From Patescibacteria group bacterium (GTDB lineage: Bacteria > Patescibacteriota > Minisyncoccia > Phycocordibacterales > UBA9973), in contig JAGWUB010000001.1 in the NCBI GenBank assembly GCA_028868715.1, forward strand, positions 183,206-247,205: a stretch of DNA of 64,000 bases, given 5' to 3'. A program made the translations under genes and the position numbers. Shown here one piece after another: positions 4,646-43,058 of the stretch (positions are counted from its first letter, which is position 1; each line of letters begins with the position of its first letter). Under the pieces are notes generated by a model. It saw only the letters and a program-made list of their open reading frames with translations. It had not been told where the DNA came from and ran no database searches.

Positions 4646-4879
4646 ATGAGTATATTTATCTCAATTTTGATTATCGTTGCTTCGATTTGTTTGATCATAG
4701 TGTCTATCCTGTTAATCACAGTCCTACTGTATATTTTAGCTCTTATTTTTACCTTGAAAGGTATTTTAGAAAAAATGGAAAAAAATATTGGTTTTGCGAC
4801 TAAAACAGCCTTAAAAACTTTTTCTGAAATAAAAAATAGCCGAGCAGTCAGATTTCTTCTAAATAAGAAAAAGAAGTGA
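4646..4879 (+). CDS. Hypothetical small membrane protein
   Basis: 77-aa ORF that is hydrophobic at the N-terminus and lysine-rich at the C-terminus. It lies between two tRNA genes. Confidence 0.3.
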   Translation: MSIFISILIIVASICLIIVSILLITVLLYILALIFTLKGILEKMEKNIGFATKTALKTFSEIKNSRAVRFLLNKKKK

Positions 4880-4902: not shown

Positions 4903-4991
4903 TGGCGGAGAGAGCGAGATTCGAACTCGCGGTCCTTTTAAGGGACGACAGTTTAGTAAACTGTTGGTTTAAGCCACTCACCCATCTCTCC
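4903..4991 (-). tRNA. Type II (Ser-like) tRNA with unusual anticodon loop TTACTAA (ACU); CCA encoded
   Basis: Minus strand reads GGAGAGA...GCGAG-TTCGAAT-CTCGC-TCTCTCC-G-CCA, with a long variable arm and G73 discriminator. The anticodon stem is ACAGT/ACTGT. Confidence 0.6.
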
Positions 4992-5009: not shown

Positions 5010-5372
5010 TTAATTTTGCTTTTTTAGCAAGTCTCGTATTTCGATGAGCAATTTTTCTTGTCGGGTAAAATTTTGGACTTTATCGTCAACTTTACGAAAA
5101 GTATTTACAAATTTAACCAAGAGGAAAATACAGAAAGCAATAATAACAAAGTCGAGCGCGGCGCTAATAAAATTACCAATATTCAGCTGCCATAATTTAA
5201 GGTTACTAAATTCACTACCCTTCATAATCGGTTTTAGGGATGCGAGGACAATATCGTTTACAAATGAAGTGATAATTTTTTGAAAAGCCCCACCGATAAC
5301 AATACCGACAGCGAGGTCGATAACGTTGCCGTGCATTACAAACTCTTTAAATTCCTTAATAAAATTTTTCAT
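5010..5372 (-). CDS. mscL: Large-conductance mechanosensitive channel
   Basis: Encodes 120 aa with an 'IDLAVGIVIGGAF' TM1 and the MscL architecture. Confidence 0.85.
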   Translation of the reverse strand: MKNFIKEFKEFVMHGNVIDLAVGIVIGGAFQKIITSFVNDIVLASLKPIMKGSEFSNLKLWQLNIGNFISAALDFVIIAFCIFLLVKFVNTFRKVDDKVQNFTRQEKLLIEIRDLLKKQN

Positions 5373-5464: not shown

Positions 5465-5553
5465 GGAGCCGTGTCAGAGTGGTCTAACGTACCTCTTTGC
5501 TAAAGAGGCAGGGGCTTCAAAACCCCTCGACGGTTCGAATCCGTCCGGCTCCG
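5465..5553 (+). tRNA. tRNA-Ser (anticodon GCU)
   Basis: Acceptor GGAGCCG/CGGCTCC. Anticodon stem CCTCT/AGAGG with loop TTGCTAA. Long variable arm. T-arm GACGG-TTCGAAT-CCGTC and G73 discriminator. Confidence 0.75.
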
Positions 5554-5747
5554 CACCAGTTTTAGTCTTGAAAAAGCTCCATTTTTTTGTTATAATGGCG
5601 TTATGAACGCTAATAATAAAGATAATCAAGACGACGAGAATAGGACCAACAATCAAAACAATACTAGCGCCAATAACAAAAAAAACCCTAGTACTGGAAA
5701 TTACGAAGAAGAAGAGGAGGAGAAGGCTAAAACCGAAGAATAATTTT

Positions 5748-7196
5748 ATGTCAAAATTTACGAATAAAATACCAAAATTTTTAAAATCCAAGTGGGTGCT
5801 TGGAGCAATTGGGCTGGTCATCCTTGTTATCGGTACCTATTTTGTTTTTTTTCACAAAACTATCAAATATCAATTTATAACCGTAAATCAAGGATCTATT
5901 ACTGAATCAGTATCTCTAACAGGTAACACCACTCCTTCGCAAAGTGTGTCTTTGGCTTTTGGAAGTAGTGGAATTATCTCTAATATATATTCTTCACTTG
6001 GAAAACAAGTTCAAAAAGGACAAGTATTAGCCGAGCTTAATATGAAGGATTTAATGGCTCAATTACACAATGCCCAAGCAGGCCTTACAATCGCCAAACA
6101 AAATGCAAATACTACAGAAAGCAATCTTGTTAATATTACCGCTGAGCAAGATGCAATTGTTGCAAGTGCGCGACAAAGTTTATATGGTAATTTTGTCGCG
6201 GCGCTTTCTGGGAATGTATCTACCTCAAATGTCGCACCGACTATTTCTGGTTCGTATACTGGAACGGTTGATGGGTCATATATTGTTCAAGTTTATTCTT
6301 CAAATTCATCAAACGGTGGTTCACTTAGTTATTCTGGATTAGAGTCTGGCACTGCGTCACTCAGCACAAATACTGCAGTACCACTAGGCACTCATGGACT
6401 TTTTATAAGTTTCCCCACATCCGCCCCGATAGGTACTTACGTCAATACCACCTGGACAGTTAATGTTCCCAATACCAGCTGGAATGGATATGCATCTGCT
6501 TTAAAGAATTATCAAACTGCATTACAGACTCGGGATAAAGTTATCGCCACCGCACAAGCCAACATAGGCACGACTGATTCGTCTGTTGTGCAAGCACAAA
6601 TTGAGCAAGCCCAAGCTAGTGTTGAAAGCGTGCAAGCCAAAATACAAAATTCACAAATTATCGCACCTATTACTGGTACCATTACTCAATTTGATGCAAA
6701 AGTTGGACAGCTTGCCTCACCAAGTACACCACTTGTTTCGATTATATCCAATAATAATTATGAGATAGATGCTGGGGTCTCTGAAACCGATGTTGGGAAA
6801 ATTTTAGTTGGCAATAAGGCTACCATAACCCTCGATGCATTTCCAAATGAAACCTTTACCGGATCGGTATTTTATATAGCCCCAGCAGAAAGTAATGTTC
6901 AAGGAGTAGTAAATTATCAAACAAAAATTTCATTCGATAAACTGGACCCTAGATTAAAGAGTGGTCTTACTGCAAATATAAATATACAAACAAGGCATAA
7001 AGATAACATTTTAATCCTTCCTCAGTATGCTATTTTGCAAAATGATCAAGGTACATTTGTGGAAACACTTGAAAATAATAAAGTTAAACAAAACCCAGTA
7101 ACTTTAGGTATCTCAGATGAAAAGGGTAATGTGGAGGTCATCTCTGGGGTAACCAAAGGTGAACAAGTTTTAAATATTGGACTTAAGGTAAAATGA
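5748..7196 (+). CDS. Efflux transporter periplasmic adaptor (HlyD/MacA family) with internal S/T/N-rich insertion
   Basis: N-terminal TM followed by coiled-coil and beta-barrel regions. It is translationally coupled to the downstream ABC ATPase. An insert of about 95 aa lies at roughly 6225..6513. Confidence 0.7.
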   Translation: MSKFTNKIPKFLKSKWVLGAIGLVILVIGTYFVFFHKTIKYQFITVNQGSITESVSLTGNTTPSQSVSLAFGSSGIISNIYSSLGKQVQKGQVLAELNMKDLMAQLHNAQAGLTIAKQNANTTESNLVNITAEQDAIVASARQSLYGNFVAALSGNVSTSNVAPTISGSYTGTVDGSYIVQVYSSNSSNGGSLSYSGLESGTASLSTNTAVPLGTHGLFISFPTSAPIGTYVNTTWTVNVPNTSWNGYASALKNYQTALQTRDKVIATAQANIGTTDSSVVQAQIEQAQASVESVQAKIQNSQIIAPITGTITQFDAKVGQLASPSTPLVSIISNNNYEIDAGVSETDVGKILVGNKATITLDAFPNETFTGSVFYIAPAESNVQGVVNYQTKISFDKLDPRLKSGLTANINIQTRHKDNILILPQYAILQNDQGTFVETLENNKVKQNPVTLGISDEKGNVEVISGVTKGEQVLNIGLKVK

Positions 7197-32951: not shown

Positions 32952-35546
32952 TTATGCCTGGCGAACTGCTATGTCTTTTATCTGCTGAATGTCGGTTTTG
33001 AGTTTGGCGATGTCTGGTGCTGCGTGCTGAACCATCTCATCGGATTGATTATGTGCCTCTATGTACCTGCTGAACTCTTCGTGTAGTTGTTTCGCTTTAT
33101 CCAGCTTTTCACGACTCAAGCTCGCGCGGGTAGCGTTGTGCATCTGAATCTGGTCAGACCAGCGCGTAATAACTCTGCCGAAGATTCTTTCTTCAACCGC
33201 TTTCTCGACCGCTCTACGTAACATCCCGTAGGTGCCTCTGATGCCGTCCGCTTGAGCTTCGCCAGTGAGAGTTTCAAGCTCAAGAACTTTTGCCTCAACT
33301 TTTTGAATGTAAGCATCGAACTTTACCGAACCAGGATAGTAGTTTTGTGTTACCACACCGACTCTGGCGGCTTCCGAATGAAGGTCGTGAAAGGCGGCTT
33401 TGGCTGGGTCAATGTTTCCGTCATTGTTTTCAACCTGGTCGTGAAGATAACTCGCAAACATCAAGTCGTGAGTGAAAACCACAATCTGCCGCGCTTCGGA
33501 TTCTTGTACGATTCTTTTTGCGATTCTCTCTTTTCTGTCGTGGTCAAAACTTGTAGCGGGGTCATCGAAAATCACTGGTGCGTGCTCGGTTTGCATTGAA
33601 AGCTCGGCAAAGAAATCCGAGAGGGCGACGGCTTTCTGTTCTCCCTCGCTCAAGAATTGGTCTATGCCGTCCAACCCTTCCATATTCTTTGCCCGCATCT
33701 GCGAGCCGTACTCTCCGCGAAACTCAAGATTGACTCCTGGCGCGTCGAGGTCTGCCGCTTCTTTTTGAAACTGTGCTTTGAACGAATCGGATACCAATTC
33801 ACGCCAGGCTTTCTTGCCCAGGTCGGTTGTCGGCTTCGTGTTGAGTTTGTTTGCCTGCAATGGAGATGCCTTTTCTATCCACCGCTCGATTGCGATGTAC
33901 TTCTCGACTTGTGGTCGGTGTTTTGAAAACTTTTGAATGTCTTGCAGCTCCGCTATTTCCTTATCGAGTGCCTGGGACTTTTTGAAAAGGTTGCGTTGCG
34001 ACTCTTCAAGGGTTTTTATGTCCGCTTCAACTTTAGCTCTCGCTTTGCGGATGCTGGAGATAATGCCAGAGGTTTTTACTGGTTGGAACTTCTGCGGCTT
34101 CTTGTTTTTCAAAGAAGATGCCACTTTTTGAGCCAAGCTGTCAGCCTCGGTCAATGCGGCGAATGCGGTAGCGACCGTTCGCTTCTGCAAAAACTTTTCA
34201 AAATCTTCCTGTCCGTATGGAAAGTCGTCTGCAAAGGAGGAGTTCTCCAAATCGTTCAGTGCCCCGTTGAGTTTCTCCTCAACATCTTCAATGTCGGATG
34301 TTTCTTCTTCTTGGAAAAGTTCTCGGTAAAGCTGAATGAGTTTCTGTGCTCCTTTCGAGAGTTTCTGCTGGCAGTATATGCAGCGGTCATCGTCTCCTGG
34401 GTATTCGTCGTGCTCGGCGATGCGGATGTAATCCTCTCCAGCATCAATAAACTTTTCCCACTCGTCCGATTCCTTTTCCGCTATGTCGTAATCCTCAAGA
34501 GTCTTGCCCTTCTTTACTGCTTGCTTCTTTTTGAGCTGGGCAAACTTTTTTACCAAGCCGAAATACACTCTGATGTTTTGAGCGGACAAGTCGGACTGTA
34601 CTTGCGCAAGGGCATCTTCCAACGCCTTGAGTTTTTGGTTTCGCGTTCGCAGAATCTCCGACTGTTGGTCGAGATTTTGTAGTCCTTTCCTTTCTTTTGT
34701 TTTATCCGTAAGAGCTTTTTGCGCTTTTGCATCCCAGGCTGGAAGTTTATTCAAATCATCCGATTTTGTACTTGCCGTTATTCCTGCAACAAACTTTCCG
34801 ATTGAAGTTTCCTCATTGAAAATGTCGTCAATCAAAGGCTTGTCGTTCGCGGTATTCCTGATGTCTTCCGCCAGACGTTCTTGCAGCCCCTGCATTGACG
34901 TTGAGAGAGCCTGGAACAGCTCGAAGCCGTAGGGCTGGTAGGAGAAGCCGAGACTTTTATTCAAATAGATTGGGATGCACTTTCCGTCGAAAACCGCCAT
35001 CTGGTCAAAGGGAGCAAGTCTGCTTTCGCCACTCCATTGGCAGACAGTATCGGTGGCACCATTCGCATATTGTATTTTCGCTTTGCAGCGATTTTGAGAT
35101 TTTGTGCTGTGGACATTTTGCCATACGTCTTCCTGCGTTCTTGAGCCAGCAACTCTTTTGAGTATTCGTACAAAACCAGACTTGCCGCTTCCGTTCTTGC
35201 CATACACGACCGTCAGCTTCGGATGAAATGGAATCGTCGCCCCACGTTCAAGCGCATTCACACCGCTTTCGTGCTGCAAACTTTTGAGCGCAAATCCGTT
35301 CGTAGCAGCGGTTCTTTGAGCGGGTACGATTGGCGCTGCTGGCTCTGCTTCTCCAGCTTTCTTTTCCTGCAACTTGTGAACGATTAGAAACTGCTTGTAG
35401 ATTTCGTCGAGGAACGCTTCATCTGGAATCGCACGCGACAACAAAACCCTTCCGATAAGGGACTTGAGCCATTCTTCGCCGCTCTGATTTGCCAGCTCTT
35501 GCAGGTAATCATCGGCTTTCAGTTTTTTGCTTGTTGTCATAGTCAT
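32952..35546 (-). CDS. Large ABC-type ATPase with coiled-coil CxxC zinc hook and extra C-terminal domain (RloC/PrrC-like anticodon-nuclease candidate)
   Basis: Walker A 'GKNGSGKS' near residue 117, a long coiled coil and 'DDDRCIYCQQ' at mid-protein. Signature 'LSEGEQ', Walker B 'VIFDDP' and H-loop 'FTHD'. A C-terminal domain of about 185 aa carries an R-x3-E...H pattern. Confidence 0.5.
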   Translation of the reverse strand: MTMTTSKKLKADDYLQELANQSGEEWLKSLIGRVLLSRAIPDEAFLDEIYKQFLIVHKLQEKKAGEAEPAAPIVPAQRTAATNGFALKSLQHESGVNALERGATIPFHPKLTVVYGKNGSGKSGFVRILKRVAGSRTQEDVWQNVHSTKSQNRCKAKIQYANGATDTVCQWSGESRLAPFDQMAVFDGKCIPIYLNKSLGFSYQPYGFELFQALSTSMQGLQERLAEDIRNTANDKPLIDDIFNEETSIGKFVAGITASTKSDDLNKLPAWDAKAQKALTDKTKERKGLQNLDQQSEILRTRNQKLKALEDALAQVQSDLSAQNIRVYFGLVKKFAQLKKKQAVKKGKTLEDYDIAEKESDEWEKFIDAGEDYIRIAEHDEYPGDDDRCIYCQQKLSKGAQKLIQLYRELFQEEETSDIEDVEEKLNGALNDLENSSFADDFPYGQEDFEKFLQKRTVATAFAALTEADSLAQKVASSLKNKKPQKFQPVKTSGIISSIRKARAKVEADIKTLEESQRNLFKKSQALDKEIAELQDIQKFSKHRPQVEKYIAIERWIEKASPLQANKLNTKPTTDLGKKAWRELVSDSFKAQFQKEAADLDAPGVNLEFRGEYGSQMRAKNMEGLDGIDQFLSEGEQKAVALSDFFAELSMQTEHAPVIFDDPATSFDHDRKERIAKRIVQESEARQIVVFTHDLMFASYLHDQVENNDGNIDPAKAAFHDLHSEAARVGVVTQNYYPGSVKFDAYIQKVEAKVLELETLTGEAQADGIRGTYGMLRRAVEKAVEERIFGRVITRWSDQIQMHNATRASLSREKLDKAKQLHEEFSRYIEAHNQSDEMVQHAAPDIAKLKTDIQQIKDIAVRQA

Positions 35547-41278: not shown

Positions 41279-43039
41279 ATGAACAGAGCATCTGAACAAT
41301 CACGAATAAAGTTCATCGCTTACAGCCGAAAAAGCACGGAGAGCGAAGACCGCCAGGTGCTCTCTTTGAATGACCAGAAGCGCGAACTTGAAGACGTACA
41401 GGCAAAAGAGAAGCTGCACGTTGTTGAGAAGTATCTCGGAGACAAGATAGGAGAAAGCCAGTCAGCCTATAAGCGCGGCAGACCTATTTTCGGGCACGTA
41501 ATGGAGCAAATAGAGGCTGGCAAAGCCAATGGTTTGCTTGTGTGGCATCCGAACCGCCTTGCACGCAATGCTTTTGATGGTGGTTGGATTATCACGGCAA
41601 TGGACGAAGGAAAGTTGCTGGAGATACGAACTCCGCAGAAGACCTACCATCACGACAATTCCGATGATAAGTTTTTCCTTCAACTTGAGTTCGGAATGGC
41701 AAAGAAGTCATCCGACGACAACAGCACTGCCGTAAAGCGCGGACTGAAAACAAAAGTCGGGATGGGTTGGTATCCGTCATACGCCCCACTCGGCTATCTC
41801 AACACCAAAGACAAAGACCTCAAAGGCAGCAATCATATTCAGATTGACCCAGAACGCTATCAAATTGTTCGTAAGATGTGGGACTTGATGCTCACGGGCA
41901 GATACACACCTCCAGAGATTTTGAGAATGGCAAACAAGCAGTGGAAGTTGAAGACGCGGACATCAAAGAAACGCCCTCTGCCTAAAGAAATGGCACGCAG
42001 TCATATCTATCGCATTTTCACCAACCCGTTTTACTGTGGATGGTTTGAATATGGCAAGCCAGTTCTTCAAGAAGACGGTACGCGACGTAAGCCGTGGTAC
42101 AAAGGCATTCACCAGCCGATGATAACGGTGGAAGAGTACGACCTCGTACAGAAACTTCTCAAAGAGAAAGGACGACCGCGCCCGAAGCGTCATCGTTTCG
42201 CTTTCACTGGTTTGATGCGCTGCGGCAACTGTGGTGCGATGATAACAGCGGAAGAGAAGATAAAGAAACAAAAGAACGGCAACGTGCATCATTACGTTTA
42301 CTATCGCTGCACGAAACGCAAGGATGAAAATTGTCCAGAGAAAACCGTCGAGCTGAAAGAATTGTCCAATCAGATTGATGATGTAATAAAAACAATTACC
42401 GTTTCGGAAGATTTCAAAGACTGGGGACTCCAGTATCTCCACGAAGTCCGCAAGGAAGAAGCAAAGACTCACGAAGCGGTGCAGAGAAGTAAGCAGAACG
42501 ATTCGCTGCGCATCACAAAGCAACTCGACAGCCTGGTGCTCAAGTACGCATCACCAGAGAATGCCAGTGGCGAGATTATCAGCGACATTGAGTTCCAGGG
42601 CTTGAAGAAGCGGTTGCTCGATGAAAAAGCAAGAATCACTAACGAGCTGCAAGAGCAGCACAAGGTGTTTGAGGACTGGCTGGATATGAGCGAGCGCACC
42701 TTCAATTTCGCACGCTACGCGGGTCTGTGGTTCGCCCAGGGCGATATGGAAACGAAGAGAGCCGTATTTGCCTGTCTCGGTTCGCACCTGGTTATTAGCA
42801 GCCAAAAACTCAACGTGCAGCTACGCAAGCCGTTCACTATGGTGTTCAAGAAGCTCGCGGAAGCGGAGAAGGAACTTGCCCAGGTTAGAACCTCTCTTGA
42901 ACCACAAAAAGCAGAAAACGCCCTCATAAAACAAAACAATCTTGCACTTGTCGTGCAAAATTGTTCAAACTGGCGGAGGCGGAGAGATTCGAACTCTCGA
43001 TACCTTTCGGTATGCCACCTTTCCAAGGTGGTGGAATAA
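41279..43039 (+). CDS. Large serine recombinase (integrase)
   Basis: N-terminal 'IAYSRKSTESEDRQVLSLNDQ', a recombinase domain, a Zn ribbon 'CGNCGAM...C' and a C-terminal coiled coil. The last ~23 codons read through the antisense of tRNA-Ser. Confidence 0.8.
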   Translation: MNRASEQSRIKFIAYSRKSTESEDRQVLSLNDQKRELEDVQAKEKLHVVEKYLGDKIGESQSAYKRGRPIFGHVMEQIEAGKANGLLVWHPNRLARNAFDGGWIITAMDEGKLLEIRTPQKTYHHDNSDDKFFLQLEFGMAKKSSDDNSTAVKRGLKTKVGMGWYPSYAPLGYLNTKDKDLKGSNHIQIDPERYQIVRKMWDLMLTGRYTPPEILRMANKQWKLKTRTSKKRPLPKEMARSHIYRIFTNPFYCGWFEYGKPVLQEDGTRRKPWYKGIHQPMITVEEYDLVQKLLKEKGRPRPKRHRFAFTGLMRCGNCGAMITAEEKIKKQKNGNVHHYVYYRCTKRKDENCPEKTVELKELSNQIDDVIKTITVSEDFKDWGLQYLHEVRKEEAKTHEAVQRSKQNDSLRITKQLDSLVLKYASPENASGEIISDIEFQGLKKRLLDEKARITNELQEQHKVFEDWLDMSERTFNFARYAGLWFAQGDMETKRAVFACLGSHLVISSQKLNVQLRKPFTMVFKKLAEAEKELAQVRTSLEPQKAENALIKQNNLALVVQNCSNWRRRRDSNSRYLSVCHLSKVVE

Positions 43040-43058
43040 ACCGCTATCCGACGCCTCC
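42971..43058 (-). tRNA. tRNA-Ser (anticodon GGA), CCA encoded
   Basis: Acceptor GGAGGCG/CGCCTCC. Anticodon arm CCACC-TTGGAAA-GGTGG. Variable arm ATACC-GAAA-GGTAT. T-arm GAGAG-TTCGAAT-CTCTC. Confidence 0.8.

Follow-up and report, generated by a model that had tools for sequence, protein, structure and literature searches.

A conserved tRNA-Ser with anticodon ACU in CPR bacteria, a probable dedicated reader of AGU codons

A natural, genomically encoded adenosine at anticodon position 34 (A34) is known from the tRNA-Thr(AGU) of Mycoplasma/Mollicutes where it stays undeaminated in small AT-rich genomes, some of which are without TadA (PMC3711424). Other non-Arg A34 tRNA genes have become fixed in a bacterial lineage; these belong to four-fold boxes, replace the GNN tRNA, and in the case of Leu are modified to I34 (PMC8007984; PMC13249217). 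For the split codon boxes, Ehrlich et al. have described A34 tRNAs as "universally missing", on a bacterial sample without CPR (PMC8007984). Likewise, a 2026 experimental preprint holds the seven tRNA(ANN) species of the two-fold boxes to be universally absent (bioRxiv 10.64898/2026.05.15.725136). Both works extend the absence of split-box A34 to phages and build selection arguments on it. No description of a bacterial or phage tRNA-Ser(ACU/ACT) was found in the literature; GenBank lists one in phage 121Q.

The window analysed here (the whole 64,000-nucleotide stretch of DNA from a Patescibacteria group bacterium) carries such a gene. The tRNA is ordinary in kind, yet its isoacceptor class is treated by the field as non-existent, and it represents an overlooked exception. 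We regard it as likely to be a functional elongator tRNA-Ser(ACU), belonging to an old and conserved paralogous family that stands beside tRNA-Ser(GCU) and serving as a dedicated AGU reader.

The tRNA-Ser(ACU) gene and its surroundings

The features of the window on which the comparison draws are the following.

4903-4991, minus strand: tRNA-Ser(ACU) gene (ARAGORN; Rfam RF00005; member of alignment A1)
4903-4905, minus strand: encoded CCA of tRNA-Ser(ACU) (sequence)
4955-4957, minus strand: anticodon A34-C35-U36, with A34 at 4957 (sequence; cmscan alignment; position-wise composition)
4953-4959, minus strand: 7-nt anticodon loop UUACUAA (sequence; cmscan alignment)
5010-5372, minus strand: mscL, large-conductance mechanosensitive channel (ORF list; Pfam PF01741 on the identical protein)
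5465-5554, plus strand: canonical tRNA-Ser(GCU), second AGY decoder (ARAGORN; Rfam, 44.7 bits)
42971-43058, minus strand: tRNA-Ser(GGA), another Ser isoacceptor (ARAGORN; sequence comparison of identity elements)

The original prediction of a Ser-type tRNA with anticodon ACU in a TTACTAA loop at 4903-4991 is borne out by ARAGORN (which reads act) and Rfam alike. The Rfam RF00005 match at 4906-4991 on the minus strand reaches 56.1 bits against a gathering score of 29, covers positions 1-71 of the 71-position model and flags no non-canonical pairs. Neither program returned an alternative fold or a standard anticodon, and the covariance score lies above threshold. The tRNA reads GGAGAGA-UG-GGU..ACC-A-ACAGU-UUACUAA-ACUGU-C-GUCC(CUUAAAA)GGAC-C-GCGAG-UUCGAAU-CUCGC-UCUCUCC-G-CCA as RNA, with a 7-bp acceptor stem (GGAGAGA/UCUCUCC), a 3-bp D stem and a 5-bp anticodon stem (ACAGU/ACUGU), followed in the 3' half by a 15-nt variable arm with a 4-bp stem, a 5-bp T stem within the T arm GCGAG-UUCGAAU-CUCGC, G73 and the encoded CCA. 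The 5-bp anticodon stem, long extra arm, G73, CCA, acceptor and T arm that had been noted are thus all present by sequence and Rfam. The extra arm had also been said to form an anticodon-like loop (CTTAAAA); the hairpin, a 4-bp stem with a 7-nt loop, does exist, but the resemblance to an anticodon is meaningless, the loop being unconserved in alignment A1.

The window tRNA has structural features of bacterial tRNA-Ser, namely a type II long variable arm with a stem, G73 and the pairs G1-C72/G2-C71/A3-U70, which would make it a substrate of SerRS. The acceptor/T architecture is 7/5, not the 8/5 or 9/4 of tRNA-Sec and allo-tRNAs, and it is a Ser codon that the anticodon complements. C35-U36 and A37 in the loop UUACUAA, together with the Ser meaning of the AGY codons, place the tRNA among the AGY isoacceptors. 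Hence, 4903-4991 is a genuine full-length type II tRNA-Ser gene with anticodon ACU. Two other readings of the loop were rejected. The minimum-free-energy fold also pairs U32-A38 and U33-A37, an artefact of thermodynamics that is often seen with tRNAs; the 7-nt loop is favoured by both the covariance model and the alignment of the family. A shifted CUA (amber) reading at positions 35-37 conflicts with the canonical loop geometry, and TAG ends eight of the 54 longest ORFs in the window.

The canonical tRNA-Ser(GCU) that had been predicted nearby is placed by ARAGORN and Rfam on the far side of mscL, and its anticodon stem differs (CCUCU/AGAGG). On the near side, mscL ends 19 nt upstream of tRNA-Ser(ACU) on the same strand, and co-transcription of the two is possible. 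The same adjacency of mscL and the ACU tRNA was seen by tblastn synteny in three further loci (L110, L054 and L038); in L110, a Nomurabacteria contig, the adjoining MscL is 58% identical to that of the window. Promoter-like sites on the minus strand occur only upstream of mscL (5437-5379), in a scan that overall performed no better than shuffles; the promoter and terminator scan at the tRNA-Ser(ACU) locus gave no signal above shuffles.

The window has about 38% G+C and encodes GatC/GatA, LemA, HtpX, MscL, a MacAB-type exporter, PilB, LigA, GyrB, SMC and RNase R. Both the flanking genes and the window tRNA have their closest relatives in CPR MAGs; for example, LemA and HtpX of locus L005 are about 72% identical to the window proteins (tblastn), and the identical locus is present in three short Logan contigs. 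Unlike the phage copies described below, the window copy sits among gatCA, mscL and macAB-type genes and not in a tRNA array. The locus is a chromosomal housekeeping context of a Parcubacteria-like CPR bacterium.

Two further observations concern the window itself. A hydrophobic ORF of 77 aa (4646-4879, plus strand) lies between tRNA-Met(CAU) and tRNA-Ser(ACU) and is also called in the identical Logan contigs; no homologue of it was found in any fetched locus. In addition, the segment 32000-44000, especially 41279-43058, has a G+C of 0.44-0.46 against 0.35-0.39 elsewhere. It contains a large serine recombinase (XisF/Ccr-like; 41279-43039, plus strand) whose 3' end overlaps tRNA-Ser(GGA) (42971-43058, minus strand), and an 864-aa ORF (32952-35546, minus strand) with no NCBIfam match. 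The segment looks like an element integrated at tRNA-Ser(GGA); a search for a flanking direct repeat of at least 16 nt around it found none.

Distribution and ancestry of the ACU family

One genome per GTDB species was scanned with a pattern composed of the UUACUAA loop, type II spacing, the T loop and the GGA.../G73 acceptor end. The loci were therefore ascertained through the ACU loop itself, and chance matches were estimated at about 30 for the whole collection. ARAGORN verified a tRNA-Ser(ACU) in 112 of 119 genome loci among the matches listed (at least 119 loci), with 111 distinct sequences, so the window tRNA is not a chance match. CPR names are borne by 83 of the 119 listed loci (about 70%) and include Saccharibacteria, Paceibacteria, Nomura-, Magasanik-, Zambryski-, Taylor-, Levy-, Gottesman-, Collier-, Roizman- and Woesebacteria, Microgenomates and Minisyncoccia. 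A further 19 of the 119 are TPA_asm MAGs labelled Gammaproteobacteria/Pseudomonadales. These MAGs (for example L008, L012, L019, L025, L039, L055, L061, L068, L086, L100, L114, L120 and L122, and the 'Pseudomonadales' loci) show CPR-like G+C (0.35-0.49), tRNA-Arg(GCG), CPR-type Ser/Arg tRNA clusters and single contigs of about 1 Mb; the taxonomic labels of these 'uncultured Gammaproteobacteria/Pseudomonadales' assemblies are probably wrong.

In 66 of the listed loci a tRNA-Ser(GCU) lies within the same 8-kb chunk as the ACU gene, often 100-600 bp away, which indicates that in CPR the ACU tRNA has been added to GCU and has not replaced it. Outside CPR, tRNA-Ser(ACU) was found in plain chromosomal contexts, beside DXS and isocitrate dehydrogenase in a Verrucomicrobiales genome (L010) and beside MoeA, MoaA and XdhB in two Planctomycetota genomes (L011 and L042). 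The notion that all non-CPR matches are phage contigs is refuted by these three loci, although it holds for a 'Flavobacteriales' MAG (L053) whose tRNA is identical to that of a viral locus (L262). A 'Pirellulales' contig (L103, JADHSL010000081.1), with a G+C of 0.36, is probably phage DNA that was binned into a Pirellulales MAG; besides a ClpP-type protease and a TIGR02466-family protein, it encodes a tRNA-Ser(ACU) near to the phage/'Flavobacteriales' type. As a separate case, a 3.5-kb Levyibacteriota contig (L063) carries seven tRNA genes, two tRNA-Ser(UGA) copies among them, and two divergent tRNA-Ser(ACU) copies in opposite orientation (1623-1708 and 2709-2794).

The family is strongly conserved in structure. 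In alignment A1, which holds 114 distinct ACU tRNAs, 99.8% of the 2,736 pair cells conform to cloverleaf pairing, and double-sided changes occur in 17 of 24 pairs (652 cells). Covariation scores 0.63, whereas column shuffles give 0.18 (0 of 500 reach 0.63) and slid partners about 0.1. U8, A14, G18-G19, A58 and the T loop, the last set by the search pattern, are invariant across A1, as are G1-C72, G2-C71, A3-U70, G73 and the long arm; G1, G2, A3, the matching 3' strand, G73, the 7-nt loop and the T loop were fixed by the pattern, and their invariance is no independent evidence. The variable region spans 14-20 nt with a stem of at least 4 bp. The block G30 U31 [UUACUAA] A39 C40 is invariant in 114 of 114 tRNAs, only its 7-nt loop having been set by the pattern.

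These data bear on the idea, raised in the original prediction, that the gene is a decaying duplicate, here taken as a Ser tRNA gene copy, decaying or without function, in which G34A arose by chance. The canonical GCU copy does lie only 470 bp away, and reviews describe A34 tRNAs as 'prohibited'. However, the compensatory changes and the near-complete pairing across the 114 distinct homologues rule out a decaying duplicate, and the neighbouring GCU tRNA has the lower Rfam score (44.7 bits vs 56.1). None of the marks of a pseudogene was seen: the score exceeds that of the GCU copy, there are no mismatched pairs, and the closest relative is an ACU tRNA of another genome. Outside the loop, the ACU tRNA has a mean identity of 0.61 to the GCU tRNA of its own genome and of 0.92 to the best ACU tRNA of another genome. 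When position 34 was masked, the nearest neighbour of an ACU tRNA was another ACU tRNA in 115 of 118 cases, and the mean distance was 0.069 to the nearest ACU against 0.197 to the nearest GCU. This clustering implies that A34 is a stable character of a coherent lineage and not a scatter of recent G34A mutants, and together with the identity of 0.61 it rules out a recent G34A mutation of the neighbouring GCU tRNA. Decay is thereby left as a very improbable explanation, and the reading of a functional, conserved tRNA-Ser(ACU) is retained.

Most CPR tRNA-Ser(GCU) have C30/G40, whereas the ACU family has G30 ... C40. A metagenome scan with position 34 left free returned 109 tRNAs with G34, four with A34 and none with U or C (n=113), which identifies the G30 U31...A39 C40 frame as the one that tRNA-Ser(GCU) ordinarily has in many non-CPR bacteria; non-CPR loci with this ordinary GCU stem-loop frame reach a G+C of 0.69 in the same scan. 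Judged by sequence, the CPR ACU tRNA looks like a classical GCU-type body with A34. In Microgenomates-type genomes, the acceptor and D arms of the ACU tRNA are those of the tRNA-Ser(UGA) of the same genome, and the ACU gene often lies 3-20 nt downstream of it. The arms held in common reinforce the Ser identity of the ACU tRNA. An origin from tRNA-Ser(UGA), which the frame and these arms had suggested, is weakened by the finding that the frame is that of ordinary bacterial GCU tRNAs. As a side observation, one Gottesmanbacteria locus in which an ACU tRNA is also present (L060) has a GCU tRNA (5998-6088) unusually near the ACU family, at a distance of 0.105 to the ACU tRNA of L039, compared with 0.247 to the closest other GCU tRNA; a duplicated ACU gene that reverted from A to G, or gene conversion, could account for it.

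Phages carry the family as well. The same ACU pattern was run on IMG/VR and gave at least 120 viral loci; among the matches listed, 118 of 120 hold a tRNA-Ser(ACU), with 92 distinct sequences. Four or more tRNAs are present in 64 of these 118 loci, in arrays of up to 23 that include Gln-UUG, Asn-GUU, Thr-UGU and Arg-UCU among others, and a GCU tRNA is also present in only one of the 118 listed. With positions 32-34 left free, the viral AGY-type Ser tRNAs comprised 92 GCU and 17 ACU (about 16% A34). For example, gene 131 of Escherichia phage 121Q (KM507819) is annotated in GenBank as tRNA-Ser(act), and XaC1_458 of Xanthomonas phage XaC1 is annotated as tRNA-Ser and read as act by ARAGORN. Among about 690 co-sampled CPR and viral tRNAs in the matches listed, the only other A34 species is Arg-ACG. 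Some metagenomic arrays hold other A34 tRNAs, such as Ser(AGA) and Leu(AAG) in repeated Met/Ser/Leu units (L240:284-1450), Phe(AAA) beside Arg(ACG) and a SeC(tca) call (L136:385-577), and Gly(ACC) (L207:2531-2601); these may be array pseudogenes or further exceptions.

Codon meaning, AGU decoding and the state of A34

The codons AGU, AGC, AGA and AGG occur in the window at 13.7, 7.6, 11.5 and 5.1 per 1000, respectively, and AGA is the commonest Arg codon. Their meaning was read from alignments of three window proteins, GyrB, LigA and RNase R, with their E. coli counterparts. Of 23 aligned AGA positions 12 face an Arg of E. coli, as do 4 of 6 AGG positions (16 of 29 together), and none faces Ser; AGU stands opposite Ser in 6 of 14 aligned positions. 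The genetic code is standard, with AGA/AGG as Arg and AGU as Ser. A codon reassignment, in which AGA/AGG or another codon would be read as Ser in this lineage, has its precedent in some mitochondria, where AGR is Ser (PMC8629427). Against it stand these alignments, a Codetta screen that reported no AGR reassignment in CPR (PMC8629427) and the complementarity of ACU to AGU, which is already a Ser codon; the chance of a reassignment is practically negligible.

The listed genome loci contain eight tRNA-Arg(GCG), four tRNA-Arg(CCG) and no tRNA-Arg(ACG). The absence of tRNA-Arg(ACG) from CPR has been noted by Shulgina and Eddy (PMC8629427). In six loci (L029, L055, L063, L068, L070 and L083) of Microgenomates-type genomes, a conserved cluster intermingles Ser tRNAs with tRNA-Arg(GCG) and tRNA-Arg(CCG), and tRNA-Arg(ACG) is absent from these Ser/Arg clusters, in agreement with Shulgina and Eddy. 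Similarly, tRNA-Ile(UAU), whose anticodon is also listed as missing in bacteria by Ehrlich et al. (PMC8007984), was found in three CPR loci (L015:7689-7764, L054:1780-1854 and L082:6449-6522) and in one more genome locus, which suggests that AUA is decoded without lysidine in the CPR lineages that carry it.

SerRS does not read the anticodon. For charging tRNA-Ser(ACU) it would rely on the long variable arm, together with G73 and the acceptor stem. On the ribosome, A34 would pair with U3 of the codon in Watson-Crick manner and make the tRNA a dedicated AGU reader, while the GCU tRNA would cover AGC and, by wobble, AGU. To our knowledge, no amino acid other than Ser among those of the two-fold Y-ending boxes has a synthetase that disregards position 34 (identity sets); this would account for the fact that, of the split-box ANN anticodons, ACU alone recurs. 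This main reading, a Ser tRNA with ACU that decodes AGU, agrees with the covariance score, the covariation, the coexistence with GCU and the standard meaning of the AGN codons. There is no sign of AGU co-adaptation; the U share of AGY is 0.65 in the window and 0.66 in the loci, as in other NNY boxes, and codon usage thus offers no reason for keeping a dedicated AGU reader.

Known TadA substrates, both tRNA and mRNA, have a common UACG core. In the ACU family the core U33-A34-C35-G36 is broken, as position 36 is U in 114 of 114 tRNAs (in a loop set by the search pattern), which makes inosine at A34 unlikely. The canonical I34 system is not in use in CPR, given that tRNA-Arg(ACG) is absent and GCG is used, and an ICU anticodon would be costly where AGA is the commonest Arg codon. 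A34 of tRNA-Ser(ACU) thus probably stays undeaminated. In E. coli, an orthogonal tRNA with an unmodified ACU anticodon underwent no deamination and read AGU at 9.4% and AGG at 0.36%, with AGC and AGA below detection (PMC11066159).

Alternatively, A34 may be deaminated by TadA or a retargeted relative, giving a tRNA-Ser(ICU) that would read AGU and AGC and perhaps compete for AGA. The loop U33-A34-C35-N-A37-A38 equals that of tRNA-Arg(ACG) except at position 36, and, as tRNA-Arg(ACG) is missing from CPR, a TadA retained there would need another substrate. Moreover, the split-box A34 tRNA Phe-AAA is reported to be deaminated to I34 in E. coli (bioRxiv 10.64898/2026.05.15.725136), and TadA specificity may be looser than assumed. 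Deamination is nevertheless unlikely in view of U36, of AGA codons that align with Arg and never with Ser, and of the ACU anticodon that stayed undeaminated in E. coli without reading AGC. The TadA motif H[AS]E...PCxxC had no ORF match in the window and about 0.9 Mb of loci, which is weak evidence, these partial genomes being uninformative on the point; no literature on the presence of TadA in CPR was found. A related speculation, to which we give a small chance, is that CPR, after the loss of tRNA-Arg(ACG), retain a wobble-A-modifying enzyme, perhaps a retargeted TadA or a so far undescribed enzyme, with Ser(ACU) as its sole tRNA target and I34 or a new A34 derivative as its product. If true, the split AGN box would be decoded by a rule of its own through the modified A34.

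A34 could also be kept mainly for a reason other than decoding, such as escape from an anticodon nuclease or toxin aimed at GCU, a role that has been proposed for phage tRNAs generally, or service as a Ser donor in a tRNA-dependent reaction off the ribosome. In phage arrays ACU replaces GCU, AGU usage carries no signal, and the invariant G30 U31...A39 C40 frame suggests recognition by some factor. Yet the same frame is that of ordinary bacterial tRNA-Ser(GCU), the CPR gene lies in a chromosomal housekeeping context, and an unsystematic look saw no nuclease or transferase gene consistently adjacent to the ACU tRNA. We consider such a role improbable, and it would remain compatible with normal AGU decoding.

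The ACU family among known A34 and serine tRNAs

Ser-ACU is a conserved family across a major bacterial radiation, and occurs in some PVC bacteria and in about one-sixth of the phage AGY-type Ser tRNAs. It offers natural test material for A34 decoding in a split box, for modification and for the reason behind A34 avoidance, with the cultured E. coli phage 121Q as a tractable system for such questions. The family fits a simple rule, in which the exception arises where the synthetase ignores position 34. Should its A34 be unmodified, the family would be the first natural example, at the scale of a lineage, of a split-box decoder with unmodified A34. Annotation pipelines should not discard the tRNA-Ser(ACT) calls of CPR and phage genomes as pseudogenes.

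The nearest known relative is the canonical tRNA-Ser(GCU) of the E. coli serV type. Both are type II with G73 and G1-C72/G2-C71/A3-U70, and both have the frame G30 U31 U32 U33 N C35 U36 A37 A38 A39 C40, in which position 34 is G in 109 of the 113 metagenomic tRNAs. The ACU tRNA differs in having A34 instead of G34 and in forming its own sequence cluster, and in CPR it is accompanied by a second tRNA, with GCU and a different anticodon stem. The phage tRNA-Ser(act) of 121Q and XaC1 has the same anticodon and type II Ser architecture; the phage copies, however, belong to tRNA arrays in which a GCU partner is usually missing, and their anticodon stems vary more, in some cases with C32, whereas the window copy is chromosomal and paired with GCU.

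Among A34 tRNAs, the tRNA-Arg(ACG) modified by TadA has the same loop pattern U33-A34-C35-x-A37-A38 and is the only other A34 tRNA in the sampled loci among the matches listed, but the ACU tRNA has U36 in place of G36, a Ser and not an Arg identity, and a type II body. The tRNA-Thr(AGU) of Mollicutes resembles the ACU tRNA in its natural A34; it reads a four-fold box in which misreading is harmless, whereas ACU belongs to the split Ser/Arg box, where the reading of AGR would be missense. Likewise, the non-Arg A34 tRNAs of other bacteria are, as the ACU family is, fixed in a lineage, but they serve four-fold boxes in place of the GNN tRNA, whereas ACU serves a two-fold box and stands beside GCU.
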